From Rickettsiales bacterium (lineage in GTDB: Bacteria > Pseudomonadota > Alphaproteobacteria > Rs-D84), in contig JAISAB010000002.1 of assembly GCA_031266915.1 (NCBI GenBank), positions 12,738 through 76,737 on the forward strand: a DNA stretch of 64,000 nt, read 5' to 3'. A program made the translations under genes and the position numbers. Below are positions 2,317 through 63,965 of this stretch, one piece after another. The notes under the pieces were generated by a model. It ran no database searches and had not been told where the DNA came from. It was given only the letters and a program-made list of their open reading frames with translations. Every line of letters begins with the position of its first letter. Positions within the stretch are counted from its first letter, which is position 1.

Positions 2317-3618
2317 TTAATCCGATATTTTTTGCACTAATACACGAGCAAACCCACTTTTTCCGTTTGTATAAGGTTCATATCGTTTATCTTGAACGAT
2401 TTCATATCCGCGTTCCAATAATCCATCCAAAATAGGATTTGCCGATACGGCAAACGGCTTTTCATAATCGTTCGGAATATATCCATTATCAACCAACAAG
2501 GTTTCTGTATCATCATATTTTTTGTTTTTTTCTGGTATATCTGCCATTGGAATAATTTTTAAACATTTTGCTTTTGGACGATTCATGACGGGCAAGTTTG
2601 TGAACCAATGCCCCGCTGCTGTCATCAACTCTTTTTTCGGATTCAGATACCAACGAACCCGTCTATGCCCAGCCCAAACCTTTCCATTCATAAAATACGG
2701 AATGTATGCTGTATTTATTGTGTTTGTATAATTTGATATAATCAAAAACTTCTTACCGCTTTCAATTATTATTTTCCAATAATCTATTGCCCGCGAAAAT
2801 GGCGGGTTCGTGCAAACTATATCCGCTTCATCGTGCAAGATTCGCAAAGATTCTTTATCGTCAAAACTGCCAGTATAGTTGTCTGGTTCTGTTTTTATCT
2901 CTTGAAACCCGTCCTTGGTAAAAATATACCCTTTGCCTTTTGCATTGAATAAATCAAGACCGCCGCTGTAATGCGCACATATTAACTTTTTCAATCCAAG
3001 TTGCATAAAGTTCTGTATAAAATAAAGTGCAAACGCAGATGTATTATTGCCGTTTCGTGGAATGTCGCCGACCGCATCATCGCAATTACAGAAAACAACC
3101 TTATTTATCCAAATCTCTTTATCATACATTGCGATTTCTTTTTCTATGTCTTCATAGCGGGTATAAAACTCATCATTTTTGACTTTTCTTGCTTTTTGCA
3201 TCAGGTCTTTATGGGTTATATCTCTTTCTTTCAATGTTGGTGTTGTTTTCTTGATGATTTTCACAATGCGCTTTTTCGTATCGGGTTTCATAAAAACCTG
3301 TTTGATAAACAACTGGTGGGACTTTATAAAATCAACATATCCATCAAACAGTGCAGAATTATAAAAATAGATTTCACGCCGCGAATCTTCGCGTAATTGA
3401 GGAAAGTGATTTTTTATATCATTTTCCATTTTCTGCATATCCTTGACTTCGCAGGTAAACAAATACTGATAAACGTTATCTTTTGACCTGCCAGTCATGT
3501 TATTATATTCCGACAACCGCCGTTCAAGATTATCGGTCAATCCAATCTTGCATTTTCCTTGTTCTAACGATGCCTGAACAATATAGATATATTGTTTATT
3601 TTTCTTTTCCATGACCAT
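2317..3618 (-). CDS. Low-GC fusion protein: N-terminal GIY-YIG/T5orf172-like nuclease domain plus C-terminal amino-methyltransferase domain (motif IV 'IVCTNPPF'); putative DNA N6-adenine/N4-cytosine methyltransferase
   Basis: KQYIYIVQ…KIGLTDNLERRLSEY (GIY-YIG-like) then …DIVCTNPPFS. GC is about 33% against about 60% for neighbours. ORF tool start is 3822; ATG at 3618 (MVMEKKNKQ) chosen. Confidence 0.65.
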   Translation of the reverse strand: MVMEKKNKQYIYIVQASLEQGKCKIGLTDNLERRLSEYNNMTGRSKDNVYQYLFTCEVKDMQKMENDIKNHFPQLREDSRREIYFYNSALFDGYVDFIKSHQLFIKQVFMKPDTKKRIVKIIKKTTPTLKERDITHKDLMQKARKVKNDEFYTRYEDIEKEIAMYDKEIWINKVVFCNCDDAVGDIPRNGNNTSAFALYFIQNFMQLGLKKLICAHYSGGLDLFNAKGKGYIFTKDGFQEIKTEPDNYTGSFDDKESLRILHDEADIVCTNPPFSRAIDYWKIIIESGKKFLIISNYTNTINTAYIPYFMNGKVWAGHRRVRWYLNPKKELMTAAGHWFTNLPVMNRPKAKCLKIIPMADIPEKNKKYDDTETLLVDNGYIPNDYEKPFAVSANPILDGLLERGYEIVQDKRYEPYTNGKSGFARVLVQKISD

Positions 3619-3954
3619 TTTATCCCTGTTTCTACACTGATAGCAATTATATGATAAACGTTTTGACATTGCAAGGAATTGCATAACATCTGTGATAATC
3701 TGCTTGCGTAGCTGATTTCTTATGCCTTTAATATCAAAGGATGCAGAACAGATTTGAATTCTGTATGCAAATATGTCGTCAACAAGGCGAAGACAGAGGC
3801 AACTAGATAAATATCTCAACAATTACTGGAAAGGTACATTCTTGGTGGTTTAGCTATATTGATAAAAGAACGCCCTGCGCCGCCGCAGGGAAAATATATT
3901 ATTTATCAAGCACAACCGACAAGAATGTACCTTTTTGGCCCCAAAAGCCCAATA

Positions 3955-4340: not shown

Positions 4341-4415
4341 GCGGGTATAGTTCAAAGGCTAGAATGTCAGCCTTCCAAGCTGAAAATGCGGGTTCGAGTC
4401 CCGCTACCCGCACCA
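4341..4415 (+). tRNA. tRNA-Gly (anticodon TCC), CCA encoded
   Basis: Cloverleaf GCGGGTA/TACCCGC acceptor, anticodon loop CTTCCAA, T-loop GGTTCGAGTCC, 3' CCA. Confidence 0.85.
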
Positions 4416-4504: not shown

Positions 4505-4591
4505 GGGCGTGCGCCGGAGTTGGAGAGCCGGGGCAGACTGTAAATCTGTTGGCTTATGCCTGAGCTGGTTCGAATCCAGCCACTCCCACCA
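4505..4591 (+). tRNA. tRNA-Tyr (anticodon GTA), type II with long variable arm; atypical C8 and one acceptor-stem mismatch
   Basis: Anticodon stem-loop GCAGA-CTGTAAA-TCTGT, variable arm about 14 nt, T-arm GCTGGTTCGAATCCAGC, CACTCCC-A-CCA end. The 5' strand GGGCGTG gives a C4·T69 mismatch. Confidence 0.55.
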
Positions 4592-7989: not shown

Positions 7990-8543
7990 TAAAATTTGTC
8001 GGCAGTTTTGAAAGGGTATCGCAATTGCCCAAAACGCAATTCCCCGAATACGCGTTTATCGGCCGCAGCAATGTCGGCAAGTCTTCACTGATTAACGCGA
8101 TTGCGGGCGCCGCAATTGCGCGCACGTCCAAGACGCCGGGCCGCACGCAGTCGCTGAATCTGTTTAATTTCGACGACCGGATTATAATTACGGACCTGCC
8201 CGGGTACGGATACGCCCGGGTTTCCAAGGCCGACCAGGTGCGCTGGCTGGACAGGTTGGGAGATTATCTGCTGAACCGCCGCCAGCTGGCAAGATTGTTC
8301 GTGCTGGTTGATTCGCGTGTCGGCGTCAAGGAATCCGATTTGGAACTGATGGATTTCTGCGACCGCAACGGAATTTCATACCAGGTCGTTCTGACAAAAA
8401 AAGATAAGAAAATCCGCGAAAAGAATCAGGATGTAATCCGCGCGGACAATCATCCGGCCATGATGGAAGAGGTAATCGAAACTTCGTCCGAAAAGAAATT
8501 CGGCGTCGACATAATGAGGGAGATACTCGGCCTATGCCGGTGA
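7986..8543 (+). CDS. engB: Ribosome biogenesis GTPase EngB/YihA
   Basis: G1 motif GRSNVGKSSLINA and G3 motif DLPGYG; overlaps the rsmI stop (coupled). Confidence 0.85.
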   Translation: MIKFVGSFERVSQLPKTQFPEYAFIGRSNVGKSSLINAIAGAAIARTSKTPGRTQSLNLFNFDDRIIITDLPGYGYARVSKADQVRWLDRLGDYLLNRRQLARLFVLVDSRVGVKESDLELMDFCDRNGISYQVVLTKKDKKIREKNQDVIRADNHPAMMEEVIETSSEKKFGVDIMREILGLCR

Positions 8544-11203
8544 AAAGCAACATCTTCTGCGCAAGCAATCCGGCAAGGCTGATTGACGCCTTGTGGGAAA
8601 TCATAAAGCAGGGCGGGTCGGACTTTTCCGACGACATTATATTCCTGCCGTCGCGGCGCGCTGCGCGCAGCGTTGAAAAAATGCTGGTTGAAAAATCCGG
8701 CGCCGCGGTATTGCTGCCTACGCTGGTGGCATTGGGCGAGGGTGCGGACGAAGACGACGATGACGTCGTCCATTCTGATGTTGTGTCGAATACCGAGCGC
8801 GTCGTCGTTCTGGCGAAACTGCTGAGCGCGGACGCGAACATACGGACGATTTCGAACGCGCTGCCGATTGCGCGCGATTTGACGCGTATGCAGGATTACC
8901 TGGAAAACGAGGGAATTGCCGCCGCCGCGATTGACTGGCCGGCGCTGGTCGATGAAAAGTACGCAGCGCATTTTCAGAAAAAGGCGGAATTTTTGAAATT
9001 ATCCGGCGCGTTCCTGTCTAACATATTTCCCAACAAAATCACCGAAACTCAAAAAAGAAACGCCGACATCCGCGCATGGATTAAATCCGAAATACTAAAT
9101 AATAAATCTAAAATCATTGTCTGCGGATCGACCGGCAGCGTACCGGCGACCGCCGACTTGATGGCCTATGTCGCGGGCATGTCCAACGGCTATATCATTC
9201 TGCCGGGCAAAATTAATTGCGGCCCCGGCGAATGGCCGATGGACGGCGGATTCAACGCGTGCAATCCGTACCATTGCGAAAAAATGTTCCTGGACCGGAT
9301 AAGCGTCGCGCCGTCTGACGTTCAAATTATCGATACAGGCCCGTCGAACATGGATTTCCTGAACGCTGCATTTTCAAATTCGGTTAACGGTTCACGGTTC
9401 ATGGTTTACGGCACGCAGTTGGTCGAATGCGCGCGCGAAAGCGAAGAGGCATGGTGCGTCGCCGAAATTGCTGCCCGCGCCGTGGCAGACAACAAAACCG
9501 TTCTGGTTATAACGCCCGACGCCGCCGGAAACCAGCGCATTGCCGCGGCGCTGAGCCATCGCGGCATAGCGGCCGACTTTTCGGGCGGAAAAAGCGGCGC
9601 CATGACGCTGGCGGGACGCGCGCTGTTGAATCTGTTCGACGATTGGATAGAGGATAAAAATTCGTCCGCATTCGACGGTTTGTATAAACGCAACGATTCC
9701 AATTTGTTCAAAACGTTGGTTGAGATTGTTGAAACAATGCCCGATGTTCTGTCGCCGCGGTTCCAATTCGATTCCGATGAATCGGCCGTCGTCTGGGACG
9801 CGCTGGAAAAGACGTCCGACGCATTGTCAAGGAACGGAATCGCGCTGACATTGTCCGACGCGCGCGCGGTGGTTGCGGACGCGCTGGCCGGCGCGACGGT
9901 CCGCCCGCCGATGAACGACGGCGCGGCCGTCTGCGTGCTGGGGACAATCGAATCCAGAATGCAAAGCGCCAATGTCGTCGTCCTGACCGGCTTGAACGAA
10001 GGGATGTTTCCCGCGCAAGGGTACGAGAATTCGTGGCTGCCGCGCACTATGGCGCAGAAAATCGGATTGCCGCCGGCGGACAGAAAGGTGTCGCTGATGG
10101 CACTGGACTTTATGAATCTGTCCTGCGGCGCGGAAGTTTACTGGCTGCGCAGCAAGACCGCCGGCGGCAGCCAGACCACCGAGAGCCGGTTTCTTTCAAG
10201 AATACAAGTCGCGACAAAGGTCGCAGATCGCAGAGCACAGAGCGAAGGTTTCGCCGCTTCGCGGCAGAGCGTAGAGCGCAGGTCGCAGGTGGAAGGTGTT
10301 GAACCACCTGCGCACTGCGCACTGCGACCTTCCACCTTGCTGCAAGCGGTGCGGGCCCGCGACGAGGTCGAATACAGGCCGCTGGATTATTCGCCGCCGC
10401 GCATTCCGGCCGACCGCAGCGACGTCTATGTGACCGAACTGGAATTGCTGATTCATAATCCTTATGCTTTCTATGCGCGGCATATATTGCGTCTGCGCCC
10501 GTTGGACGATTATTGGCAGGAACCCGATGCGCGCGACTTCGGCAATCTGGTGCACGGCGTGATAGAAGAATGTTCAAAGTTCAAAGTTCAGAGTTCAGAT
10601 GATTTGATAGAAATGATGGACAAACGCGCGAAGCAAATATTGCCGGCGGGCAGTGCCGTATATCATTTCTGGCACAAGCGCTTTGTCGAAATCGCTCCGG
10701 CTGTCGAGGCGCTGCTGCGGGAATCGCAGAGCCTGAACCGGCAGCAATCAGAAATCGACCTTTGTACGACCATCGCGGGTCGTCGCGTCCGTGCGCGCGC
10801 GGATATGGTTTATTACAAGCAATTTCCCGATTCTGCGGAACCGATTACCGTTGCGCTGGACATCAAAACGGGTGCAGTCCCGTCAAGAAGCCAGCTAGAG
10901 CAGGGCAATATGCCGCAATTGCCGCTGGAGGCGCATATGATTCAATCAGGCGGATTCGCCCAGGGGTCGGGGCCCCAGGTTCAAAGCCCGAATGTCGTCA
11001 TGCAGTTTCTGCAACTGAAAAACAATAACGTAAAGCTGATTGAATACGACGCGGACGCGACGCAAAAGATGATTGATGCCGCCGTCGACAAAGTATCACA
11101 GCTGTTCGGTCGATATTCGAATGATGGCGAGCCGTATGAATACTACGAAACGTCCGACCCAAAGTATAAGGTCTATGACGACCTGGCCCGCGTTGACGAT
11201 TAA
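8534..11203 (+). CDS. addB: AddB-like double-strand-break repair nuclease/inactive-helicase subunit, carrying an in-frame palindromic-element insertion
   Basis: N-terminal …IFLPSRRAARSVEKML… and C-terminal PD-(D/E)xK region (ADMVYYKQ…DIKTG), typical of alphaproteobacterial AddB. Confidence 0.6.
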   Translation: MPVKSNIFCASNPARLIDALWEIIKQGGSDFSDDIIFLPSRRAARSVEKMLVEKSGAAVLLPTLVALGEGADEDDDDVVHSDVVSNTERVVVLAKLLSADANIRTISNALPIARDLTRMQDYLENEGIAAAAIDWPALVDEKYAAHFQKKAEFLKLSGAFLSNIFPNKITETQKRNADIRAWIKSEILNNKSKIIVCGSTGSVPATADLMAYVAGMSNGYIILPGKINCGPGEWPMDGGFNACNPYHCEKMFLDRISVAPSDVQIIDTGPSNMDFLNAAFSNSVNGSRFMVYGTQLVECARESEEAWCVAEIAARAVADNKTVLVITPDAAGNQRIAAALSHRGIAADFSGGKSGAMTLAGRALLNLFDDWIEDKNSSAFDGLYKRNDSNLFKTLVEIVETMPDVLSPRFQFDSDESAVVWDALEKTSDALSRNGIALTLSDARAVVADALAGATVRPPMNDGAAVCVLGTIESRMQSANVVVLTGLNEGMFPAQGYENSWLPRTMAQKIGLPPADRKVSLMALDFMNLSCGAEVYWLRSKTAGGSQTTESRFLSRIQVATKVADRRAQSEGFAASRQSVERRSQVEGVEPPAHCALRPSTLLQAVRARDEVEYRPLDYSPPRIPADRSDVYVTELELLIHNPYAFYARHILRLRPLDDYWQEPDARDFGNLVHGVIEECSKFKVQSSDDLIEMMDKRAKQILPAGSAVYHFWHKRFVEIAPAVEALLRESQSLNRQQSEIDLCTTIAGRRVRARADMVYYKQFPDSAEPITVALDIKTGAVPSRSQLEQGNMPQLPLEAHMIQSGGFAQGSGPQVQSPNVVMQFLQLKNNNVKLIEYDADATQKMIDAAVDKVSQLFGRYSNDGEPYEYYETSDPKYKVYDDLARVDD
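10217..10340 (+). repeat. Palindromic element of about 125 bp (terminal inverted repeat AGGTCGCAG…CTGCGACCT) inserted in-frame in addB; RPE-like
   Basis: Near-identical copy at 47946..48079 inside xerC/D; open in several frames on both strands. Confidence 0.8.
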
Positions 11204-11329: not shown

Positions 11330-11437
11330 AAACACTAGTGTATAGTTAATAGTCATTAGTCAGTAGTCATTAGTGAATGTGTCGCGCCTTTGGCGCGATG
11401 ACTTTATTAACTATAGACTATTGACTGTGCACTATCG
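11330..11437. repeat. TAGTNNN-heptad long hairpin element with central GC hairpin (gtgtcgcgcctttggcgcgatgac)
   Basis: Arms tagtcat/tagtcag/tagtcat/tagtgaa and their reverse complements. Confidence 0.7.
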
Positions 11438-11695
11438 TTTACTTTCAATGCATTCTTCCCATTTTTTGTTGACGCACTTTTTTGTCCCAAGCAGACCCGT
11501 GGCCGTCAAGCATTGTACAATCATGCCGGATTCGCATACGTTGCTGGCGCATTTCCTGAACAATGCGTCGTCCAGATTTGGATAGCATGATTTCATGGCG
11601 CCAGTCGAAATTAGTTCGTTCGGCGCCGGGCTGTTCGTTTGCGGCGCGGCCCAGACGGCCGACGACGAAAATAAGAGAAAAATTAAAAATATCAT
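11432..11695 (-). CDS. Small secreted cysteine-rich protein (87 aa, signal peptide, 6 Cys)
   Basis: Signal peptide MIFLIFLLFSSSAVWA; preceded by the conserved structured leader. Confidence 0.5.
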   Translation of the reverse strand: MIFLIFLLFSSSAVWAAPQTNSPAPNELISTGAMKSCYPNLDDALFRKCASNVCESGMIVQCLTATGLLGTKKCVNKKWEECIESKR

Positions 11696-17390: not shown

Positions 17391-18716
17391 CTATTTCCCC
17401 AAACACAGTTGCCCGAACGCCGCATCCGCGATTTCGTCCGCGCCGATGACGCCCAATATCCTGCCGACGGCGTCAGCCGCGGCGCGCGCGTGTTCTGCGA
17501 ATATATCGTAATCGGTAATCGGTAATCGGTAATCCGACAGGGCGGACCGCAATTCATCGGCGGCGGTTTCCAGCAGTCCGCGCGTTCGTTCATTCACGGC
17601 GATGTCGGATTCCGCGCCATCCAGCATCGCGTGCATTTTTTGCTTAATCGCGTCCAGCAGTTCAGGAATACCGTCGCCGGTAAGGGCGGAGGCATGAATG
17701 GATGATGGATGATGGATAATGGATGACGGGTCGATTAAATCGGATTTGTTGATAACAATAATCTCGTTATCTTTGGCCGCTTCATTCAACATTCCACACT
17801 CAACATTCAACACTTTTATAATCAAATCGGCGTTTTCGATTTCCGCATGCGCGCGCTGGATGCCGATGTTTTCAATCGCGTCGTTCGATTCGCGGATGCC
17901 GGCCGTGTCGGACAGATTGACCAGGTATCCGTCTATGTCCAGTTCCGCGTCGACCACGTCGCGCGTCGTTCCGGGAATGTCTGACACGATGGCGCGCGCA
18001 TGGCCGACCAGTCTGTTGAACAAAGACGATTTGCCGACGTTGGTTTCACCCGTAAAAACGATATTGAAACCGCCGCGGACGGCGCGCGCCGCCGCATAGC
18101 CCGATAACGCGCCGCGGATGTCCGCATGCAGTTTCTTTGTTTGCGCAAATAATTTCTCGCCGATGTTTTCCGGCAATTCGTCGGAGGCATAATCCAAAAT
18201 CGCGGCAGCGTACGCGGCGATTTCCACCATTTGGCTGCGCCATGATTCATAGACGGAACTATCGCCGCCCGTCATGGATTTCAGGGCAAGCATGCGCTGG
18301 CGGTCCGTGCGCGCATCCAGCAGCGCCGCCAGGCCATCGACCGCCGGCAAATCCATTTTATTGTTGTAAAAGGCGCGGCGGGAAAACTCGCCGGGCTGGG
18401 CTATGCGCATTCCATGTGTGCGCAGATGTTCGAATATTTTCTCGATAACGGCCGACGCCCCGTGGCAATGGATTTCGACGACGTCTTCGCCGGTGAACGA
18501 ATTCGGCGCGCGAAAATAAATCGCGATAATTTGGTCAATCAAAGCGCCGCTGTCGTCGCGCAGGTCGGTCAGATAGGCATGGCGCGGAATAATGGATGAT
18601 GGATAATGGATGATGGATGACGGGTTGATTTGGCCGCTGATGCGGATGACGGCGACGCCGGATTTTCCCAGGCCCGATGATAATGCAAAGATTGCGTCGC
18701 CGGTTTCTCGGTTCAT
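17391..18716 (-). CDS. mnmE: tRNA modification GTPase MnmE (TrmE), carrying three in-frame heptamer-repeat insertions
   Basis: G-domain GETNVGKSSLFN, DTAGIRE, NKSDL; C-terminal …CLGK. Confidence 0.85.
   Translation of the reverse strand: MNRETGDAIFALSSGLGKSGVAVIRISGQINPSSIIHYPSSIIPRHAYLTDLRDDSGALIDQIIAIYFRAPNSFTGEDVVEIHCHGASAVIEKIFEHLRTHGMRIAQPGEFSRRAFYNNKMDLPAVDGLAALLDARTDRQRMLALKSMTGGDSSVYESWRSQMVEIAAYAAAILDYASDELPENIGEKLFAQTKKLHADIRGALSGYAAARAVRGGFNIVFTGETNVGKSSLFNRLVGHARAIVSDIPGTTRDVVDAELDIDGYLVNLSDTAGIRESNDAIENIGIQRAHAEIENADLIIKVLNVECGMLNEAAKDNEIIVINKSDLIDPSSIIHHPSSIHASALTGDGIPELLDAIKQKMHAMLDGAESDIAVNERTRGLLETAADELRSALSDYRLPITDYDIFAEHARAAADAVGRILGVIGADEIADAAFGQLCLGK
17512..17535. repeat. 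GGTAATC heptamer tandem repeat (×4) inside the mnmE CDS
   Basis: Seen directly; encodes …DYRLPITDYD… without breaking the ORF. Confidence 0.7.
17696..17728. repeat. TGGATGA/TGGATAA heptamer tandem repeat inside the mnmE CDS (encodes PSSIIH-type repeats)
   Basis: Seen directly; related copies at 18592..18621 and 56727..56830. Confidence 0.7.
18592..18621. repeat. Second TGGATGA heptamer repeat tract inside mnmE
   Basis: aatggatgatggataatggatgatggatga. Confidence 0.7.
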
Positions 18717-20638: not shown

Positions 20639-21124
20639 ATGACGCGCATTTTGGGGATTGACCCCGGGCTTTTGCACACGGGATGGTCTGTGATTGATTC
20701 GGCCGGCAACGCGCGGGCCTATGTCGCCAGCGGCGTGATTCTGCCGCCAAAGACCGAGGAGCTGGCCGTGCGCCTGGCATTTATTTTCCGCGAAGTGTCG
20801 AAATTGCTGGATATATGGAAACCTGACGAATGCTCGGTCGAAATCATATTTGTGAACAAGAATCCGAAAACGACGCTGGTTCTGGGCCAGGCGCGCGCGG
20901 CCGCGCTGATTGCCGTCGCGGACAAGGTTATCCCGGTTTTCGAGTACGAGCCGAACAAGATAAAAAAAGCGCTGAGCGGCGCGGGCCACGCCGACAAGGA
21001 ACAGATTTATAAAATGGTGAAGCTGCTGCTGCCGGTGGCCAATCCGAAAACGTCGGACGAAAGCGACGCGATTGCCATCGCGCTGGCGCATAGTAATATG
21101 AGCAGGGTAATAGTTAGTAAATAG
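20639..21124 (+). CDS. ruvC: Crossover junction endodeoxyribonuclease RuvC
   Basis: MTRILGIDPGLLHTGWSV…; catalytic D/E pattern; …AIAIALAH… C-terminal motif. Confidence 0.85.
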   Translation: MTRILGIDPGLLHTGWSVIDSAGNARAYVASGVILPPKTEELAVRLAFIFREVSKLLDIWKPDECSVEIIFVNKNPKTTLVLGQARAAALIAVADKVIPVFEYEPNKIKKALSGAGHADKEQIYKMVKLLLPVANPKTSDESDAIAIALAHSNMSRVIVSK

Positions 21125-21212
21125 TGATTAGTGCTTAGTTGATAGTGCATAGTTAATTAGTTCACTAATCACTATAAACTATTCACTATACACTACCAAC
21201 TATTTGTTTTTC
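21104..21212. repeat. TAGTNNN-heptad hairpin element between convergent ruvC and the 21211 gene
   Basis: tagtgat tagtgct tagttga tagtgca tagttaa … cactaat cactata aactatt cactata. Confidence 0.7.
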
Positions 21213-22919: not shown

Positions 22920-23216
22920 ATGAAAGATATGCCAAAAGACCAAATGGAACGCATCATGCACAAGTTGTATCACAAACGCAACTTTCTGCTGCGCGCGTTC
23001 GTAATCAACCTGGTTCTGATAATAGCGGTGTGGGGACTGTCCATGACGGATTTCTATGCGAATATGGCGGGACACTTTATGCACTGTCCGGCGGCGCAGG
23101 CGGAAACGTATACCATGGATTTGCTGGGCGCGTGGAAAATCGCGGGCGTTCTGTTCTTCCTGGTGCCTGCGCTGGCCGCATGGTGGGAACTGCATGCATG
23201 CCGGAAACGCCAATAG
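22920..23216 (+). CDS. Small hypothetical membrane protein (2 transmembrane helices)
   Basis: Two hydrophobic helices; intact ORF with upstream AT-rich promoter region. Confidence 0.45.
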   Translation: MKDMPKDQMERIMHKLYHKRNFLLRAFVINLVLIIAVWGLSMTDFYANMAGHFMHCPAAQAETYTMDLLGAWKIAGVLFFLVPALAAWWELHACRKRQ

Positions 23217-23312
23217 TTATTAGTGCATAGTGATTAGTGCTTAGTTTATAGTACATAGTTAAAATTTACTAAACACTAAGCACTATAAACTATGCACTAC
23301 TCACTAATGACT
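23214..23312. repeat. TAGTNNN-heptad hairpin element (7 heptads per arm) between convergent genes
   Basis: tagttat tagtgca tagtgat tagtgct tagttta tagtaca tagttaa | tactaaa cactaag cactata aactatg cactact cactaat gactatt. Confidence 0.75.
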
Positions 23313-23637
23313 ATTTTCTTATCGTCACCTTTGCCACGGCGTCATAGCCGAAGTATTTGTTTATCTTTGCCGCGATGTCGTCTTTCATATAGGATAATTG
23401 CAGCGCGAACGCCGGATTCGCGGCGCGCACGGCGATATTGAATTTCTTGTCGCGGGTCTTGGTTATCGCGGCCAGCCGCGCAATCGACGCGATGTCGCCG
23501 CCCATGATTTCATCCCAGCGATTGCTCAAATCAGCGTCTGATGCGCGGACGCCGAACAGCCGCATCAATCCCCCGAACGTCGACGCGATGGTCTGGGGGC
23601 GGGCAGTGCGTTTGTTAAGATTAACAGGATTGGCCAT
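23311..23637 (-). CDS. DUF721/DciA-like protein (putative helicase-loader family)
   Basis: …RWDEIMGGDIASIARLAAI…FNIAVRAANPAFALQLSYMKDDIAAKINKYFG…VKVTIRK fits the DUF721 pattern. Confidence 0.5.
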   Translation of the reverse strand: MANPVNLNKRTARPQTIASTFGGLMRLFGVRASDADLSNRWDEIMGGDIASIARLAAITKTRDKKFNIAVRAANPAFALQLSYMKDDIAAKINKYFGYDAVAKVTIRK

Positions 23638-23645
23638 TGTTGAAC

Positions 23646-23740
23646 CATTAGTTTATAGTGATTAGTGCTTAGTTTATAGTGCATAGTTAAATAGCTTACT
23701 AATCACTAAGCACTATTCACTATACACTACAAACTAGTGT
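23646..23740. repeat. TAGTNNN-heptad hairpin element between dciA-like gene and mltA
   Basis: tagtttatagtgattagtgcttagtttatagtgcatagtt … aatcactaagcactattcactatacactacaaactag. Confidence 0.7.
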
Positions 23741-25437: not shown

Positions 25438-25462
25438 AAAACCGGCGAAAGCCGGTTTTTTA
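25434..25462. terminator. Bidirectional Rho-independent terminator (aaaaaaaccggcgaaagccggtttttt)
   Basis: Perfect hairpin flanked by A- and T-runs. Confidence 0.8.
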
Positions 25463-25554
25463 AATAGCAAATATCAAATAGCAATTTGGTGCAGAATTGG
25501 GCTATAACACCATAAACGGCACCCCATTTGCTATTTGATATTTGCTAATTGCTA

Positions 25555-25720
25555 TTTTTCTTCTGGACACGGGCGTCACAAAGGCGCACAATGCCATCAC
25601 AGGACCGCTAATCCAAACCATCCTTGGATTGTACATAGTTCCCGTTTTCAAAAATCCCGCATTTCCGCCGTCTCTTATTTCCCATTTATTGCCTAATCTA
25701 AACCATGGTTTTTATATCAT
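25555..25720 (+). promoter_or_regulatory. 165-bp duplicated promoter/5'-UTR block (second copy 63805..63965) containing TTATTGCCTAATCTAAACCATGGTTTTTATATC (-35/-10-like)
   Basis: About 90% identical to 63805..63965; the TTGCCT-N17-TATAT motif is also at 44290 and 44395; upstream of a secreted tail-fibre-like gene. Confidence 0.55.
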
Positions 25721-25743
25721 TCTTGGCAATGGGGAAAAGAGAG

Positions 25744-26389: not shown

Positions 26390-26605
26390 AAATAATAAAG
26401 AATAGATAATAAAGAATAAAAATATGTTCGGTCTAATTTCCCCTCCTATGGAGGGGTGGCGCGCGGATGCGCGACGGGGTGGTTAGAGGTTTCGAGATTA
26501 AATTTTGATTATCCAACCACCTCCCGGTCTTCGACCGTACTCCTCCAAAGGAGGAGAACTTAGACCGAACATATTTTTATTCTTTATTATTTATTCATTA
26601 AAAAG
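26390..26605. mobile_element. MITE-like non-coding element with terminal inverted repeats of about 30 bp (ataataaagaataaaaatatgttcggtctaa … ttagaccgaacatatttttattctttattat) enclosing several GC hairpins
   Basis: Terminal inverted repeats seen directly; a solo repeat-like sequence (aataaagaatagagaataaagaataaa) occurs at 2213..2245 next to the low-GC island. Confidence 0.55.
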
Positions 26606-26698: not shown

Positions 26699-26822
26699 GA
26701 AATAGTCTATAGTCGATAGTCATTAGTCTATAGTGATTAGTATTTAGTTGATAATGCATAGTTGACTAGTTTACTGAACACTAACGACTATTGACTATAG
26801 ACTAATGATTATTGACTACACC
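26699..26822. repeat. TAGTNNN-heptad hairpin element
   Basis: tagtctatagtcgatagtcattagtctatagtgattagtatttagttgataatgcatagttgactagtt … and reverse-complement arm. Confidence 0.7.
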
Positions 26823-28049: not shown

Positions 28050-28185
28050 GGATAGCATATAGCGGTAGTTGATAACCATTAGTGATTAGTGCATAGTGTT
28101 TAATTATTAGTAAACTAGTTAACTATTCACTATAAACTAATCACTATTAACTACTGACTAATGACTATTGACTAACAGTTGTTTT
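28050..28185. repeat. TAGTNNN-heptad hairpin element between MFS gene and recA
   Basis: …cattagtgattagtgcatagtgtttaattattagtaaactagttaactattcactataaactaatcactattaactactgactaatgactattgacta. Confidence 0.7.
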
Positions 28186-30252: not shown

Positions 30253-31260
30253 ATGCCGGCAATATCGGTCGTGATACCTGTATATAATGTTGAAAAATAC
30301 CTGCGGCGCTGTTTGGACAGCGTCGCGGGTCAGACTTTCTCGGACTGGGAGGCGATTTGCGTCAACGACGGCAGCCCTGACAACAGCGCCGCGATACTGG
30401 CCGAATACGCCGCACGCGACAAGCGGTTCAAAGTCATCACCAAGGAAAACGGCGGCCTGTCCGACGCGCGCAATGTCGGCACGGACGCCGCGACCGGCGA
30501 CTATCTGATTTATTTGGATTCGGACGATTTTATTCATCCCCAGACGATGGAATTTTCCTATGCGCTGGCGCAGCGCGACGGTTCCGACATCGTATCCTGG
30601 TACAAGGATAAGTTCTTTCGCCCGCAGTTGCTGATATGGTACAAGCTGGGGTTCGACATCGATTCCATGATGCCGCGCCGAATCAAAAAAAGGTACAAGC
30701 TGGAAAAAATCAGGACATGCGTCACGGACGATGTCTTCGCGCATACGACCGAGCGTCCGAACAGCAGCATCAAATGGCCCATCAAGCATTTTTACGTATG
30801 GCGCCATTTAATCCGCCGCGAATTCATCAAAGGAATAAAATTCATCAAGGGAATCACTTTCGAGGATTTTCCCTGGTGGTCCGAGGTCATGCTGCACCAT
30901 CCGCGCGTCACGATTACCAAGCTGCCGTTCCTTTATTACTTTCCGAACCTTAATTCCATCGACATGGCGTCCAACGAGGTCAAGAAAGTGCGCAACTGGA
31001 TAATCGGTTTGGAATCGTCTTACAATATGTACAGGGCACGGGCGACCGATTATGAAAAGATCGCATGGGAACGCGAAGTCATGTGGCCGGTCATCGTCTA
31101 TCAGATTTTTCGCAAGGTAAGATATATCAAAAAGTCGGCGGATGCCGAATTTATCAAAGAGACGTTGCTGCGTTTCAAAGAAATGGGCATGTTCGACAAT
31201 CCACAGACCTGGCGGGCAAAAATATATCAGCGCAGAATTTTGAAGTATATCAATCAATAG
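30253..31260 (+). CDS. Family 2 glycosyltransferase
   Basis: ISVVIPVYNVEKYLRRCLDSV…NDGSPD…YLDSDD GT2 motifs. Confidence 0.8.
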   Translation: MPAISVVIPVYNVEKYLRRCLDSVAGQTFSDWEAICVNDGSPDNSAAILAEYAARDKRFKVITKENGGLSDARNVGTDAATGDYLIYLDSDDFIHPQTMEFSYALAQRDGSDIVSWYKDKFFRPQLLIWYKLGFDIDSMMPRRIKKRYKLEKIRTCVTDDVFAHTTERPNSSIKWPIKHFYVWRHLIRREFIKGIKFIKGITFEDFPWWSEVMLHHPRVTITKLPFLYYFPNLNSIDMASNEVKKVRNWIIGLESSYNMYRARATDYEKIAWEREVMWPVIVYQIFRKVRYIKKSADAEFIKETLLRFKEMGMFDNPQTWRAKIYQRRILKYINQ

Positions 31261-31352
31261 TCATTAGTGAGTAGTGCATAGTTTATAGTGATTAGTGAAT
31301 TAGTTAACTATGCACTATAAACTAAGCACTAATCACTATGCACTAACTATTA
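31256..31352. repeat. TAGTNNN-heptad hairpin element between convergent glycosyltransferase genes
   Basis: tagtcattagtgagtagtgcatagtttatagtgattagtgaattagtt | aactatgcactataaactaagcactaatcactatgcactaacta. Confidence 0.7.
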
Positions 31353-43255: not shown

Positions 43256-44167
43256 ATGTATGACGTTATTATTTTGGGCTCGGGACCGGCCGGATTGACG
43301 GCGGCGCTGTATTGCGCCCGCGCAGGAAAGCGGACGCTGGTCCTGGGCGGCGACAAGCTGGGCGGCCAGACGGCCGGCATCGCCATATTGGAAAATTACC
43401 CGGGCTGGGCCGGCAGTGGGCTGGAACTGTCCAAATTCATAAAGAACCAGGCGACTAGCTTCGGCGCTGAGATTATTCTCGCCAGCGCGAAATCTGTTAC
43501 GGCGAATCAGAAACAGGGAATCGGATTTACGGTCGTTGCCGACAACGCGGCGGAATATGAATCGCGGGCCGTCATCGCGTCGACCGGCGCGTCGCCGCGC
43601 AAGTTGGAAATCGCCGGCGCGCGCGAATTGTTCGGCCGTGGCGTATCCTATTGCGCGACGTGCGATGGATTCTTTTACAACGGCAAGAGCGTACTGGTCA
43701 TCGGCGGCGGGAATTCCGCGCTGAACGACGCGCTGTATCTGGCGGATTTGGCCGAAACGGTAAAGATTGTTTATCGCAAGGATTCCTTTGCCCGCGCCGA
43801 ACAGGTTATGGTCGACCGCGTCAATGAAAGGTCCAACATCGAATGTCTGTTCAACACGGAACTGGCAAGCCTGGCGCTTAAACCGGACAGCGCGGATGGC
43901 GAATTGATTGCGACCACGACAAGCGGCGATACGATTGCATGCGACGGCGTGTTTGTCGCCATCGGGCACGAGGCCAATACGGATTATCTGCCCGAAGACA
44001 TCAAGCGCGACGACATGGGGCGTCTGGCGCAAAGCGAATTGCCGCCGGGCCTGTTTGTTGCCGGCGACGTGCAAAGCGACCTGAAGATGCAGATTGCAAC
44101 TGCGGTCGGCACTGGCTGTTCGGCCGCGATGGACGCGATTGCGTTTATTAACACCAGTAGTGAATAG
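43256..44167 (+). CDS. trxB: Thioredoxin-disulfide reductase TrxB
   Basis: MYDVIILGSGPAGLTAALYCARAG…CATCDGF…GGGNSALNDALYL; ATG at 43256 with GGAGA Shine-Dalgarno. Confidence 0.9.
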   Translation: MYDVIILGSGPAGLTAALYCARAGKRTLVLGGDKLGGQTAGIAILENYPGWAGSGLELSKFIKNQATSFGAEIILASAKSVTANQKQGIGFTVVADNAAEYESRAVIASTGASPRKLEIAGARELFGRGVSYCATCDGFFYNGKSVLVIGGGNSALNDALYLADLAETVKIVYRKDSFARAEQVMVDRVNERSNIECLFNTELASLALKPDSADGELIATTTSGDTIACDGVFVAIGHEANTDYLPEDIKRDDMGRLAQSELPPGLFVAGDVQSDLKMQIATAVGTGCSAAMDAIAFINTSSE

Positions 44168-44262
44168 TCATTAGTCAGTAGTCTATAGTCAATTAGTTAA
44201 TAAAGTCGTCGGCTCCGCCGACACATTCACTAGTGACTATTGACTAATGACTATTCACTAGC
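44160..44262. repeat. TAGTNNN-heptad hairpin element with central GC hairpin (gtcgtcggctccgccgacac)
   Basis: agtgaatagtcattagtcagtagtctatagtcaattagtt … cactagtgactattgactaatgactattcactag. Confidence 0.7.
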
Positions 44263-47003: not shown

Positions 47004-47122
47004 AATAGTCAATAGTCTATAGTCGTTAGTTATTAGTGAAGGTGTCGCGCAACCTGTCCACCGAAGCCTTGGCGAAGGTGGAAGCGCGACGACTTTATTA
47101 ACTATTGACTAATAACTATTTC
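47004..47122. repeat. TAGTNNN-heptad hairpin element with extended central GC hairpin (gtgtcgcgc…ccaccgaagccttggcgaaggtgg…gcgcgacgac)
   Basis: The central hairpin is related to that of 11330..11437. Confidence 0.7.
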
Positions 47123-47659: not shown

Positions 47660-48631
47660 TTATAACTTCCTCCGCGCCAGCGGATGGTGCTGTTCGACGG
47701 TGTCCCGCAGTTTCTGGGGCAGGACGTGCGTGTATATCTGCGTGGTGGAAATATCCTCGTGCCCCAGCATGGTCTGAATCGCGCGCAGGTTCGCGCCGCC
47801 CGCCAGCAGATGCGACGCGAACGAATGCCGCAGGACGTGCGGGCTGACGCGATTCGGGTCGATTCCGGCCAGGACCGTGCACTTTTTCAATATCTTGAAA
47901 AATCCGTCGCGGGTTATGTGACCCGTCTTGCTGTTTGATGGAAAAACATATTTTGAGGTCGCAGAGCGCAGAGCACAGAGCGCAGGTTTCGCCGCTTCGC
48001 GGCAGAGCGAAGAGCGCAGGTCGCAGGTAGAAGGTGTTGATAATGACGAACCACCTTCGCTCTGCGTTCTGCGACCTTCCACCTGTTGCGCATCCATCCA
48101 CTTGCCCAGCGCGCGCTGGGCGGATTCGTGCATCGGGACCAGACGTTCCTTGGCGCCCTTGCCGTGAATCAGCAACTTGTCGCCCAAGACGGCGGTAACG
48201 GGCAGCTCGCACAGCTCGGACACGCGCAAACCCGACGCGTACAGCAATTCCAGCATGGCCCGCAGGCGCAGTGAATTTTTAATATCGCCGGCGCTGGATA
48301 TTAGCAGCTCGATTTCGTCGACCGACAGGAATTTCGGCAACGTTTTCTGGCGCTTGGGCAATTCCAAGCCAATCGACGGATTGGCATGGATGATTTTTTC
48401 CAACATCAGGAATTTGTAAAATCCGCGCAGAGAGCTGGCCTTGCGCGCAACCGACGACGCGCGGCAGGGCAGGGACGACAGATACGACTGCAGCGCCTCG
48501 GCGGTCGTGGCCGTCAAATCGCCCAGATGATTCTGCGCGTGCGACAGGTCGCTGCCATAGCTTTCCAGCGTTTTTCTGCTGCGGCCTTTTTCGGCCGACA
48601 GGGCCTCTAAAAATATCTCGATACAATTCAT
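47660..48631 (-). CDS. XerC/XerD-family tyrosine recombinase carrying an in-frame palindromic-element insertion
   Basis: …HVLRHSFASHLLAGGANLRAIQTMLGHEDISTTQIYTHV… catalytic R-H-R-Y box; start at MNCIEIF (ATG 48631). Confidence 0.8.
   Translation of the reverse strand: MNCIEIFLEALSAEKGRSRKTLESYGSDLSHAQNHLGDLTATTAEALQSYLSSLPCRASSVARKASSLRGFYKFLMLEKIIHANPSIGLELPKRQKTLPKFLSVDEIELLISSAGDIKNSLRLRAMLELLYASGLRVSELCELPVTAVLGDKLLIHGKGAKERLVPMHESAQRALGKWMDAQQVEGRRTQSEGGSSLSTPSTCDLRSSLCREAAKPALCALRSATSKYVFPSNSKTGHITRDGFFKILKKCTVLAGIDPNRVSPHVLRHSFASHLLAGGANLRAIQTMLGHEDISTTQIYTHVLPQKLRDTVEQHHPLARRKL
47946..48079 (+). repeat. Second copy of the palindromic element of about 130 bp (terminal inverted repeat AGGTCGCAG…CTGCGACCT), in-frame in xerC/D in the opposite orientation relative to the host gene
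   Basis: About 85-90% identical to 10217..10340; adds about 45 aa (…QQVEGRRTQSEGGSSLSTPSTCDLRSSLCREAAKPALCALRSATS…). Confidence 0.8.
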
Positions 48632-55861: not shown

Positions 55862-56728
55862 ATGCAATTGAAATTTATGAAGTACAGAAAGCTGTCGTAC
55901 TGGGTTTCCGGCATTTTGGTGGCGCTTAGCGTTCTGTCACTGGCGACGCGCGGATTGAATTACGGCATCGATTTCGCGGGCGGCATTTCGATGGAGGTCA
56001 CGCCAATCTCGGCCGACTACACAATCGACAAGATGCGCCACGACTTGGCCGAATTTGGCCCAGAACTGCAATCGGTGGACAACAACAAATCCATCTTGGT
56101 GCGCGTCGGCCTGCCCAAGGGCGCCACGGACGAGCAGCAGAACCAGCGCGTCCGCGAAATTAAAGAAATCTTGGGCGAAAAAGTTCAATACTCCCAGGTT
56201 CAAATCGTCGGTCCGAAAATCGGCGGCGAACTGGTCCGCGGCGGCATATGGGCGATTCTGATTTCATTCATACTGATGTCGGTTTATATCTGGATTCGAT
56301 ACAAGGGCGGATATGCGGTGGGCTCGTTCGTGTCGCTGGTGCTGGACTTTGTTTTGATGTTCGGATTCTTCTCGGTCGCGGGACTGGAATTCAACCAGAC
56401 GTCCATCGCGGTCATCTTGATGGGTATCGGATATTCCATCAACGACAAGGTCGTGAATTATGACCGCATCGACGAGAACATCAGAAGATACCACAAGATG
56501 CCGATGACGGATTTAATCGACCTGTCGGTGAACGAGATGATGCGCCGGACAATCATGACCTCTGTTTCCACCATCCTGGCCATGATAGGGCTGTACTTGT
56601 TCGGCGGCGGCATGCTGCGGGATTTCTCGGTCGCGATGACGTTCGCGGTCGTTATGGGCACGCTGACAAGCATCTATATATCCAACGTCGTGCTGTATCA
56701 CTTTAACCTGCGCGAGACGGACTATTAA
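55862..56728 (+). CDS. secF: Protein translocase subunit SecF
   Basis: …GIDFAGGISMEV… SecF signature and 6 transmembrane segments. Confidence 0.9.
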   Translation: MQLKFMKYRKLSYWVSGILVALSVLSLATRGLNYGIDFAGGISMEVTPISADYTIDKMRHDLAEFGPELQSVDNNKSILVRVGLPKGATDEQQNQRVREIKEILGEKVQYSQVQIVGPKIGGELVRGGIWAILISFILMSVYIWIRYKGGYAVGSFVSLVLDFVLMFGFFSVAGLEFNQTSIAVILMGIGYSINDKVVNYDRIDENIRRYHKMPMTDLIDLSVNEMMRRTIMTSVSTILAMIGLYLFGGGMLRDFSVAMTFAVVMGTLTSIYISNVVLYHFNLRETDY

Positions 56729-56745
56729 TGGATGAGGGATAAGGG

Positions 56746-58284
56746 ATGATGGGATTTAAAAAAATATTCGACATAAAGATATTATTTGCGTTGATGTCTT
56801 TTCTGCCATCATCCATCATTTATCATCCATTGTTCGCAACCGATTTGTTCCATGAAGATGAAACCGTCCAGGCTGGGCTGAATGTGTTCGCGGTCTCGGA
56901 TGTCTTCGCCGATATATATCAAAAGCTGGACGGGATGTCCTGGGGCGGCAAGACCATCAACGTCGCCATCGAATCGGTGGAAAACATTCACCCTGACGCG
57001 CATATTGCCGCAACGGACGAGCGCGTCGTCCTGGTCTGGCGCGATTCGATTGTCTCGAATTATCCGCGGCCCGCGGCCGGCGACTGGCAGGGATTCGGCC
57101 AGATTACGACCGCGCTGATTGTGAAACTGCGCCAGCTGATTCCCGAATTCGGTCGCGCGTCGGAAAGCGCCATGTACCAAACGGTGGTCGACAGCCTGAT
57201 GCGCGGCGTGGATGAAAACGGCCGGTATATCTATTCGCGCGCGGCCGAAATCGACGAAGATGGTCGGATTCTGACCAGCGCCGGGTTGCAGGGTGGACGC
57301 GACAACCGCGGCAATTTCCGCGTGACCGGCATTTACAAGGATTCACCCGCGGACGTCGGTGGCGTCAAAGCCGGCGATTTGATTACGAAAATGAACGGCG
57401 CGCGCGTCGCGGATATGTCAGAAGCGGATGTGGCGTCCGTGCTGTCGGGCTTTAATTCCGGCACTTTGAAACTGACGGTTCTGGCCCCCGGCGGCGAAAA
57501 GCAGGTAGTTCTACGCCGTGCGACAATCGTTCTGGCGGATGCGGACATCGTTCATCGCGCCGATGCCGACAGCGGCGCGGGATTGCTGGAAATCGTCGTG
57601 CACAAGGTATCGAACGCCTCGGTTTCCATCGTCAACGAAGCCTTGGCAAAATATCCCGATGTGACGGGAATCGTTCTGGACCTGCGCGGCGCGATTGGCG
57701 ACGACGAGCGTGCGGCCGCGAAACTATCCGGCCTGTTTATCGGTCAGGTTCCGGTCATGCGCATTGTCGAGACGGCCCGCGCCGAGGTCGAAATCGTCCC
57801 GGGCGCCGGCAAAGTCGCCGACGCGCCGATTGTCGTTCTAATATCTAACACGACGCGCGGCACGGCCGAGGCCATCGCCGCCGCGTTTTATGAAAACAAT
57901 CGCGGCGTCTTGGTCGGAACGCCGACCGCCGGCAGCGCGCGCATCGCGACAAAAATCGATTTGGAAAACGGCGGCGCGCTGGAATTGCTGAACAAGTCCG
58001 TCAAAACCGGCCGCGGCAGCATAATCGACGGCCGCGGAATTTTCCCACTGGTATGCCTGTCCAATATCCGTTCGAACGAACAGCAGGGCGCCTTTTTCCT
58101 GAACGTGCTGAACGGCGATTTCAAGGCCCAGGACTTTAACGGAAATATGAATCTGACGCCGGACGCCATCCGCAAGGGATGCCCGACCATCACCAGCGGC
58201 GCGGACGAGGATGCGCTGTCCGCCGCCGTTTCGGTTCAGATACTGACGGATAGGAAGATTTATAATAAGCTTATAAGTGAATGA
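56746..58284 (+). CDS. Carboxy-terminal-processing (S41) peptidase with PDZ domain; the N-terminus contains TGGATGA-type heptamer repeats
   Basis: PDZ (…GVKAGDLITKMNGARV…) and S41 motifs (…GIVLDLRGA…, …VLISNTTRGTAEAIAAAF…). Confidence 0.7.
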   Translation: MMGFKKIFDIKILFALMSFLPSSIIYHPLFATDLFHEDETVQAGLNVFAVSDVFADIYQKLDGMSWGGKTINVAIESVENIHPDAHIAATDERVVLVWRDSIVSNYPRPAAGDWQGFGQITTALIVKLRQLIPEFGRASESAMYQTVVDSLMRGVDENGRYIYSRAAEIDEDGRILTSAGLQGGRDNRGNFRVTGIYKDSPADVGGVKAGDLITKMNGARVADMSEADVASVLSGFNSGTLKLTVLAPGGEKQVVLRRATIVLADADIVHRADADSGAGLLEIVVHKVSNASVSIVNEALAKYPDVTGIVLDLRGAIGDDERAAAKLSGLFIGQVPVMRIVETARAEVEIVPGAGKVADAPIVVLISNTTRGTAEAIAAAFYENNRGVLVGTPTAGSARIATKIDLENGGALELLNKSVKTGRGSIIDGRGIFPLVCLSNIRSNEQQGAFFLNVLNGDFKAQDFNGNMNLTPDAIRKGCPTITSGADEDALSAAVSVQILTDRKIYNKLISE

Positions 58285-59360: not shown

Positions 59361-59932
59361 AAAACGCGATAATCATACACGGTATACTAGAGACGCGTGA
59401 AGAATTGTTTGATTCGCCCGTCAGTGCGTCCAATTTTTCTTGGCTGCCGGGGGTTCAAAGACAGTTGGTTCAACGTGGGATTTTGACACAGACCCCCGAA
59501 ATGCCCACGCCGTATATGCCTGATGTTGATTTTGATGGATGGGTTGCGGTTTTCGAACAATTTAACATAGGCAGGGACACATTATTGATAGGACATTCAG
59601 CCGGCGGCGGATTCCTGTTGAAATATTTGTCTTTGAATCCGCAAATTAATCCGGGCCGCTTGATATTGGTCGCGCCGTGGCTGGATATAGATGCCGAGCA
59701 TCCGACATTTTTTCAGAATTTTGACTTGGATATAGATTTGCCGAAACGTATAAACAGAATAGATGTTCTCTATTCGACAGACGATATGAATATAATTATC
59801 AAGTCAATTGATAAAATAAAAAAAGTTTATGGCAATCGGATAAATTATCATGAATTTTCCGACAGAGGTCATTTTGATGAAATTGATACAGGCAAAGATT
59901 TTCCGGAATTGCTGGATGTCATAAATCAATAG
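59357..59932 (+). CDS. Alpha/beta-hydrolase-fold serine hydrolase (RBBP9/YdeN-like), low GC
   Basis: GHSAGG nucleophile elbow; about 190 aa; about 40% GC. Confidence 0.55.
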   Translation: MKNAIIIHGILETREELFDSPVSASNFSWLPGVQRQLVQRGILTQTPEMPTPYMPDVDFDGWVAVFEQFNIGRDTLLIGHSAGGGFLLKYLSLNPQINPGRLILVAPWLDIDAEHPTFFQNFDLDIDLPKRINRIDVLYSTDDMNIIIKSIDKIKKVYGNRINYHEFSDRGHFDEIDTGKDFPELLDVINQ

Positions 59933-60240
59933 TCATTAGTCTATAGTGTTTAGTTGATAGTGCATAGTACCCCTGCTTTCGCAGGGGTGACGAGTCTTGA
60001 GTTTTTGGGACCAAAAAGATACATTCCTGTCAATTGAGCATAAATCCCCCACCGGCGCCAACCAACAATCTCCCTGAATTTTCATCGGCAACAAGTTGCC
60101 GGAAAATTCTCCCCCTCTTTAAACAAGAGGGGCAGGTGTCTGATGCAACTAATCACTATATATACTATGCACTACTCACTATCGACTACTTACTACAGAC
60201 TAATGACTATAGACTACTGACTAACCACTGACACTAACGC
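59928..60240. repeat. Composite element: TAGTNNN-heptad arms (59930..59972 and 60148..60240) flanking about 180 bp of GC hairpins
   Basis: Internal hairpins cccctgctttcgcagggg, cggcaacaagttgccg, ccccctctttaaacaagagggg; MITE-like architecture. Confidence 0.6.
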
Positions 60241-63725: not shown

Positions 63726-63800
63726 TAGTCAATAGTGCATAGTGCTTAGTAAGCGGTTTAACTATGCACGACTTGCTATTCGTCCATATCACTAACCAGT
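63726..63800. repeat. TAGTNNN-heptad element after the stop of the 62541 gene
   Basis: taatagtcaatagtgcatagtgcttagtaag…aactatgcac. Confidence 0.6.
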
Positions 63801-63804
63801 ATTT

Positions 63805-63965
63805 ATTTTTTTGCTGGACACGGGCGCCACAAAGGCGCACAATGCGCTTACGGGACCGCTAATCCAAACCATCCTTGGATTGTACATAGTTGCTATTCTT
63901 AAAAATCCCGCATTTCCGCCATATCTTATTTCCCATTTATTGCCTAATCTAAACAATGGTTTTTA
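63805..63965 (+). promoter_or_regulatory. Second copy of the 165-bp promoter/5'-UTR block (see 25555..25720)
   Basis: ctggacacgggcgccacaaaggcgcacaatg…ttattgcctaatctaaacaatggtttttatg; the downstream gene lies beyond the window. Confidence 0.55.

Follow-up and report, generated by a model that had tools for sequence, protein, structure and literature searches.

How does a palindromic repeat come to lie inside a conserved protein-coding gene without breaking its reading frame? The question is raised by a stretch of 64,000 nucleotides (contig JAISAB010000002.1, positions 12,738 to 76,737, assembly GCA_031266915.1; hereafter, the window), in which the gene encoding AddB, the B subunit of a helicase-nuclease, carries a palindromic element built largely of 7-nt units. 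We propose, with a probability of roughly 0.8, that this element belongs to a new family of small non-autonomous palindromic repeats, comparable to the Rickettsia palindromic elements (RPEs) and to intragenic transposable elements of the miniature inverted-repeat kind (MITEs), which has been copied to many places of the chromosome of an uncultured alphaproteobacterium and occurs also in some relatives. The evidence for its in-frame spread is solid and comes from several unrelated genes, from orthologues with empty sites, and from the use of both element strands as coding sequence.

One Element in Two Unrelated Genes

The open reading frame (ORF) at 8534-11203 is 100% identical to the deposited protein MDR1337511.1, for which the source gives the names "PD-(D/E)XK nuclease family protein" and "ATP-dependent helicase/nuclease subunit B". 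An initial annotation, made from the sequence alone, had placed a palindromic element of about 125 bp at 10217-10340 in this addB-like gene. The element is real, and we trim it to 10218-10337, a segment of 120 nt (copy A) that starts with AGGTCGCAG at 10218 and ends with CTGCGACCTTCCACCT at 10337. As had also been claimed, the frame of AddB is unbroken: the 40 codons of copy A lie within the 889-aa ORF and are translated, in the sole open frame of the plus strand, as VADRRAQSEGFAASRQSVERRSQVEGVEPPAHCALRPST.

A second copy (copy B) is found 37.7 kb away in an unrelated gene, that of the tyrosine recombinase XerD. A 25-mer of the core has two exact matches in the window, where shuffled sequences lead one to expect 0; copy B agrees with copy A at 95% identity in the first 85 nt and at 89% in the final 37 nt, and its loop has nine bases more (GATAATGAC). 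The near-identical copy initially reported in a xerC/D gene is thus confirmed as an insert in XerD, although its coordinates, given as 47946..48079, have to be moved to 47956-48084. XerD is encoded on the minus strand, hence copy B is read from the element strand opposite to that used by AddB, as QVEGRRTQSEGGSSLSTPSTCDLRSSLCREAAKPALCALRSAT. Since the two genes translate opposite strands of one element, the repeated unit is DNA and not a protein module.

Both inserts are absent from orthologues. In 16 aligned AddB orthologues (57-70% identity) the insert columns are empty, save that two (P0016 and P0087) have short extras of a different kind there, and the other AddB matches listed (119 of 119) measure 799-849 aa versus 889 aa here. 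Similarly, the alignment with Escherichia coli XerD (1a0p) covers residues 4-175 and 225-310 only, the alignments of nearly all the 150 best representatives of XerD fall into two stretches that skip residues ~181-224, and close XerD relatives show KWLDARGDTQSKYVFPSN across the site, with no insert. Judged by these alignments, the inserted peptide is not native; in particular, none of the 16 aligned AddB orthologues has the same peptide, which disposes of the possibility, raised at the outset, that it forms a native domain of AddB. In the AlphaFold model of AddB, residues 572-596 have a predicted local distance difference test (pLDDT) score below 50, flanked by confident helices, and in that of XerD the same applies to residues 193-224, between a confident helix and the following region. 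According to alignments and models, then, the AddB and XerD inserts sit in loops of variable length that are modeled with low confidence, the loop position having been anticipated for AddB.

Two further features of AddB genes deserve mention. One AddB orthologue (P0005) has its own 31-residue insert (L124, 4225-4335), which we do not assign to the family, its structure not being significant (z = -0.85). In the window AddB itself, a heptamer array (AAAGTTC)n occupies 10558-10603, 220 nt downstream of copy A, and accounts for ~4 residues (KFKVQ) more than in most orthologues; a like array, (AGTTCAA)n, is present in a gene on another contig (L002, 1602-1643).

Structure of the Element

The element begins with AGGTCG[C/A]AG and ends with CT[G/T]CGACCT. 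In its arms, 7-nt units of the AGAGCGC type form inverted tandem arrays, and over its full length it is able to form one long hairpin. The array at the left end reads AGGTCGC AGAGCGC AGAGCAC AGAGCGC and is followed by a small hairpin, GCCGC-TTC-GCGGC; the right arm consists of complementary heptamers and ends with CTGCGACCT(TCCACCT). Two size forms occur, a short form of 84 bp and a long form of 120-132 bp, the latter having, beyond the basic arms, the small hairpin rich in guanine and cytosine (GC) and a second heptamer array that ends with GGTGGAAGGTG and leads into an AT-rich loop. A non-repetitive core (TTTCGCCGCTTCGCGGCAGAGCG) and a loop (GTTGATAATnACGAACC) are common to several copies.

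The inverted termini described in the initial annotation correspond to a terminal inverted repeat of 24 nt in copy A, 83% complementary, in which 10217-10240 faces 10308-10331 (AAGGTCGCAGATCGCAGAGCACAG against CTGCGCACTGCGCACTGCGACCTT). Its internal hairpins are also recovered, both as the small hairpin (table 1) and as inner arms, with 10263-10292 pairing with 10304-10333. As the right arm is able to pair with either left array, copy A has two alternative folds and two inverted-repeat pairs. Folded as single-stranded DNA, copy A reaches -39.9 kcal/mol (z = -4.9) and copy B -36.9 kcal/mol (z = -4.65), with 0 of 200 shuffles as good in either case; for the long copies, on either strand, the folding z scores lie between -4.0 and -5.2 relative to shuffles. 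We considered an intrinsic terminator and rejected it, the main hairpin of the element not being followed by a T-tail.

The GC content of the element is 60-64%, against ~52% for the window, so that the figure of about 60% first given for the genome is wrong. All three minus-strand frames are open across it, rather than two as originally stated, and only one plus-strand frame; its composition is nearly stop-free.

Further Copies and Their Reading Frames

In a search of a protein database with the concatenated, translated open frames of the element, the same peptide was found in RlmN (two sites), QueH, TruB, and a terminase-like protein, all of the source metagenome-assembled genome (MAG; locus tags LBJ73_) and encoded on other contigs of 105,578 and 35,639 nt, as well as in Lgt of a second genome. 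The two copies of the window are therefore not the only ones, a possibility that had initially been held open. In the source MAG the tally stands at at least 7 element sites in at least 6 proteins, and three of the four further carriers are housekeeping enzymes. This search missed AddB itself, and the list of carriers is a minimum. A 45-column profile of the insert peptides gave no scoring match in the protein database. The inserts of RlmN (P0121) lie at residues ~145-170 and ~282-334; one is truncated (KVECINDNEPPSLCALRPST), the other is full and has an extra ...ATRSSTS tail, which may represent a second right end of the element. For TruB and RlmN, the inserts correspond to gaps in homologues of solved structure, and the alignments break exactly there.

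Two of these further copies were recovered as DNA. The TruB copy (L002, 2218-2349), taken from an independent Logan assembly, has 132 nt and the loop extra GATAATAAC. The Lgt copy of the second genome (L003, 10367-10450; JGI contig Ga0466704_362834, 97,548 nt, with a GC content of 44% vs. 52% for the window) is of the short form, 84 nt, and makes a near-perfect hairpin with (AGAGCGC)3 arms of 33 nt, 94% complementary (-42.9 kcal/mol, z = -10.5). The four copies known at the DNA level measure 120, 129, 132, and 84 nt; each is genic, and each amounts to a whole number of codons.

The frames in which these copies are read are far from evenly used. In six of the seven carrier genes (AddB, RlmN, QueH, TruB, the terminase-like gene, and Lgt) it is the sole open plus-strand frame, XerD being the exception. 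The plus frame is the most hydrophilic one, with a grand average of hydropathy of -0.8 to -0.9 and a net charge of +1 or -1, and the frame used by XerD is the next most benign of the open frames; the two unused open frames are either strongly basic (+7 to +11) or hydrophobic. As far as the translations tell, this usage is what one would see if genic copies survived only where the surface loop that they add does no harm.

A degenerate relative of the element occupies the same AddB loop as copy A in a third genome (L125, 11636-11710, protein P0016). It has the form GGGTCGCAGAAC (AAAGAGC)n ... GTTCTGCGAACC, shares the element ends GGTCGCAG...CTGCGAACC, and folds with z = -3.6. Common ancestry of the two filled loops is unsupported: in a neighbor-joining tree the window AddB (P0001) groups with a protein whose site is empty (P0007), and P0016 is not its sister. 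This placement suggests that a permissive loop was hit independently in the two genomes or that one old insertion was followed by losses, and the third-genome element may mark an insertion hotspot or be an old remnant.

Searches of other collections added no copies. An exact 22-mer match in an Acidobacteriaceae MAG, among the GTDB species genomes (a set to which the source MAG apparently does not belong), is attributed to chance, as only the 22-mer is in common. An exact 19-mer scan of metagenome contigs returned at least 120 stretches, and the longer element pattern was present in none of the loci examined, a 19-mer being too short for that collection. No match was obtained with copy B in a blastn search of the PLSDB plasmids or in a 19-mer scan of IMG/VR, and an Rfam scan of the complete window at gathering thresholds reported two tRNAs only and nothing for the element.

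Mobility and Alternative Explanations

We suggest that the element would be copied by a putative enzyme supplied in trans and would insert without target-site duplication, possibly removing a few target codons. Genic copies would persist only if they are stop-free, in frame, and hydrophilic and fall in a surface loop tolerant of length changes; they would be transcribed and translated as an extra loop of ~28-44 residues, mostly disordered and hydrophilic, which probably has no function and either leaves the host protein unaffected or harms it slightly. Several observations weigh against such a history. The flanks of the four copies known as DNA share no direct repeat that would indicate a target-site duplication, which leaves the usual MITE mechanism unsupported. 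A native GTCGCG lies 12 nt upstream of copy A. Neither a transposase nor an integrase (besides XerD) nor an HUH/RAYT enzyme appears in Pfam scans of ~50 ORFs of the window, the 64 kb contain no insertion sequence with matching ends, and no intergenic copy was seen in ~88 kb of DNA from carrier genomes (the window, L002, and L003). At the AddB site, the net gain over orthologues is ~30 residues compared with 40 element codons, ~9 native codons are missing, and the insertion was consequently not clean. Moreover, most carriers came to light via annotated proteins, a route by which in-frame copies alone can be detected and which skews the sample in their favor.

Some of these same observations, namely the lack of target duplications and of a transposase and the ~9 native codons missing at the AddB copy, are also what one would expect if the elements were not transposed at all but grew in place, by a genome-wide process of 7-nt duplication (slippage or hairpin-templated copying), and were homogenized by gene conversion between loci. 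The general repeat landscape lends this some credit. The window contains 21 tandem arrays of period 7, composed of several unrelated heptamers, and 0 of periods 4-6 and 8-12, with 0 in shuffles; tandem arrays are confined to period 7 in L127, L003, L125, and L002 as well, and the bias recurs in the sister genome GCA_031555055.1, with period 7 exclusively and other heptamers (ATGAAAA, CGCTATN). Unit number varies between copies of the element, and in MnmE (see below) arrays of (ATGGATG)n substitute loop segments of equal length, adding none. Yet unrelated genes have non-repetitive modules in common, that is, the GCCGCTTCGCGGC hairpin with its flanks, the AT-rich loop GTTGATAATnACGAACC, and the terminal AGGTCG.AG, which makes an independent origin by local slippage impossible, and gene conversion presupposes a first ectopic copy at each locus. 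We thus consider growth in place unlikely. A related and wider view is possible, if doubtful: the element could represent a single family in a system of inverted heptamer arrays that spans the clade, all produced or maintained by one mechanism with a 7-nt step, which might overwrite loop-coding segments of essential genes instead of just inserting into them. The system would comprise the GC-rich AGAGCGC family in genes, TAGT/ACTA in intergenic gaps, GGATGAT, AATAAAG, AAATAGC, and others; a heptad-binding protein or hairpin-templated copying are candidate mechanisms, and overwriting would have taken place as in MnmE and, in part, in AddB.

The remaining alternatives account for the insert at the level of the protein, the transcript, or the assembly. 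That the peptide is a selected functional module of several enzymes (e.g., a helical hairpin or an interaction motif), its DNA palindrome being incidental, would agree with the common frame of six out of seven carrier genes, with the fact that three heptamers encode a 7-residue repeat (ERRAQSA / LCALRSA), possibly helical, and with the AlphaFold helix that runs on into the start of the insert. This is nonetheless very improbable: XerD reads the opposite strand and so a different peptide, the carrier proteins are unrelated in function, the orthologues examined do without the insert, which is mostly modeled as disordered (pLDDT below 50), and hydrophilicity and charge explain the frame bias more simply. 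It would be a still greater surprise if the segment were an intervening sequence, removed from the RNA or skipped by the ribosome owing to its hairpin. The hairpins are indeed very stable as RNA or DNA, above all that of the Lgt copy; but the copies, of 120, 129, 132, and 84 nt, all have a length divisible by 3 and no stop in the frame of the host, which removal of the segment would not require, and there is no signature of an intein, an intron, or a known RNA family (Rfam). In Rickettsia, the gmk product is translated with its RPE insert (PMC2229807). An intein or other protein-level intervening sequence was rejected also on account of size (28-44 residues vs. >130 for a self-splicing domain, which has a conserved nucleophile and HN motifs), of the lack of a Pfam match, and of the reading from both strands. 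Finally, the source is a MAG, and assemblers can be misled by repeats; an assembly or binning artifact is nevertheless hardly credible, because each copy has unique flanks and continues the host frame exactly, the copies differ from each other, and an identical TruB protein, insert included, is encoded by an independent Logan contig (SRR14710922).

Relation to Known Repeats

The closest parallel to the mobile, non-autonomous repeat that we favor is provided by the RPEs (RPE-1 to RPE-10; Ogata et al. 2000, 2002, cited after the summaries of PMC2229807 and PMC10969869). RPEs are palindromic sequences of 105-150 bp with a long stem-loop and terminal inverted repeats, a size range that includes the long copies described here (120, 129, and 132 nt). 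Like the present element, they have an open frame and are fused in frame within many unrelated conserved housekeeping genes, adding a peptide, and they likewise have neither a clear target duplication nor a known mobilizing enzyme. The host, on the other hand, is no Rickettsia but a MAG of 52% GC labeled "Rickettsiales bacterium", whose nearest AddB homologues come from uncultured Rickettsiales and Alphaproteobacteria MAGs, mostly labeled "Alphaproteobacteria bacterium". The element is also set apart from RPEs by its composition, being GC-rich (60-64%) and made of tandem heptamers. The RPE-like character proposed in the initial annotation therefore holds for behavior, with in-frame copies in unrelated genes, while membership of the Rickettsia RPE families is unlikely, given the GC content of the element and the AT-rich genomes of Rickettsia.

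Intragenic MITEs with open frames form a second point of comparison; they include the 107-bp form of Correia/NEMIS, ERIC, and QMITE1 of Coxiella (PMC2229807; PMC10969869; PMC5896051). Small size, terminal inverted repeats, multiple copies, and the lack of a transposase of their own are common to them and to the present element. In these MITEs, stop-free variants are genic and stop-rich ones intergenic, which finds a parallel here in a GC-rich genic and an AT-rich TAGT/ACTA intergenic family. Typical MITEs, however, are A+T-rich, end in TA, and have target duplications, none of which is true of this element, and it falls outside the classical definition on the matter of target duplication.

Another type of heptanucleotide repeat array is that of the cyanobacterial STRR heptamers. 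Unexplained heptamer direct repeats, TAACTGA, are described from Beggiatoaceae, Cyanobacteria, and Bacteroidetes (PMC4679880). What such arrays share with the present ones is a strict 7-nt period, an abundance specific to certain lineages, and an unexplained origin and mechanism; they are, however, direct and mostly intergenic, whereas here inverted pairs form palindromes, and one family lies in frame in genes. Repetitive extragenic palindromic (REP) sequences and the bacterial interspersed mosaic elements (BIMEs) formed by them, mobilized by RAYT (PMC3733652), are likewise palindromic, multi-copy, and inserted without target duplication. Nevertheless, REPs measure 20-40 nt, lie outside genes, and are marked by a GTAG or CGTC tag on one side, so that their definition does not cover a genic element of 84-132 nt with the ends AGGTCG.AG / CT.CGACCT. 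In sum, the element is a heptamer-built variant of the protein-coding palindromes and, on the reading that we prefer, constitutes a previously undescribed family.

[quoted passage not shown] An independent case in a different, moderately GC-rich uncultured lineage, with a heptamer-built sequence that looks unrelated, shows the phenomenon to be more general. It provides material for comparison on the properties that let proteins tolerate a repeat, with stop-free composition, a hydrophilic and near-neutral frame, and loop placement as candidates, as well as on movement without target duplications and on whether such elements feed protein evolution. The strict genome-wide 7-nt periodicity would be a second, as yet unexplained, mutational or protein-binding signature.

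Other Repeats and Features of the Window

Table 1. The palindromic element, its two host genes, and the TAGT/ACTA palindromes, with positions counted from the first nucleotide of the window.
Feature	Positions	Strand	Basis or remark
AddB gene, 889 aa, PD-(D/E)XK nuclease family, helicase-nuclease subunit B; host of copy A	8534..11203	+	ORF, Pfam, database match
Copy A, 120 nt, 40 codons, inside AddB	10218..10337	+	Sequence, repeat comparison, frame analysis
Copy A, left terminal arm: AGGTCGC AGATCGC AGAGCAC AGAGCGA, then AGG	10218..10248	+	Four heptamers read off the sequence; pairs with 10308-10331
Copy A, small internal hairpin GCCGC-TTC-GCGGC, non-repetitive	10253..10265	+	Identical in copies A, B, and TruB
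Copy A, second, internal heptamer array AGAGCGT AGAGCGC AGGTCGC AGGTGGA AGGTG	10266..10298	+	Competes with the left terminal arm to pair with the right arm
Copy A, loop TTGAA	10299..10303	+	9 nt shorter than in copy B (GATAATGAC) and the TruB copy (GATAATAAC)
Copy A, right arm CCACCTGCGCACTGCGCACTGCGACCTTCCACCT: reverse-complement heptamers and terminal CTGCGACCT	10304..10337	+	Sequence, folding, inverted-repeat search
XerD gene, 323-aa tyrosine recombinase (P0122, MDR1337549.1); host of copy B	47660..48631	-	Pfam Phage_integrase and Phage_int_SAM_1
Copy B, 129 nt, 43 codons, inside XerD	47956..48084	+ (DNA orientation as copy A)	Sequence, repeat comparison
(TAGTnnn)n/(nnnACTA)n palindromes	11336-11455, 21115-21202, 23214-23313, 23649-23736, 26703-26804, 28080-28174, 31258-31345, 44158-44260, 47006-47118, 59930-60223, 63726-63787		Repeat comparison

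The most numerous of the other repeats are AT-rich intergenic palindromes of the structure (TAGTnnn)5-7, loop, (nnnACTA)5-7, of which there are ~11 in the 64 kb, at least 8 of them complete. Their arms usually have equal numbers of units, and they fill intergenic gaps, often starting at a stop codon; some have a central GC hairpin and a T-tail, in the manner of a bidirectional terminator. In MnmE (17391-18716, minus strand), two in-frame (ATGGATG)n units of 40 nt, at 17697-17736 and 18591-18630, are 93% identical and encode INPSSIIHYPSSII and IDPSSIIHHPSSIH, and an inverted pair related to them is located at 56727-56831. Compared with two orthologues, the MnmE arrays substitute loop segments of approximately equal length, which, from the alignment, looks like overwriting rather than insertion. 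An inverted repeat with arms of 62 nt, 90% complementary (26396-26457 / 26539-26600), contains (AATAAAG)n, and an (AAATAGC)n inverted pair spans 25462-25557. Besides these, the window has a direct repeat of 178 nt, 88% identical, whose two copies lie 38 kb apart (25553-25730 / 63804-63981), and an AT-rich palindrome (1341-1450) that resembles one in the second genome (L003, 5836-5939). Lastly, a block of low GC content on the minus strand (2317-3822, 36.5% vs. 52%) codes for a fusion of an EcoRI-like adenine methyltransferase with a T5orf172/GIY-YIG-like domain; it adjoins tRNA genes at 4341-4412 and 4505-4588 and is probably a small acquired island.

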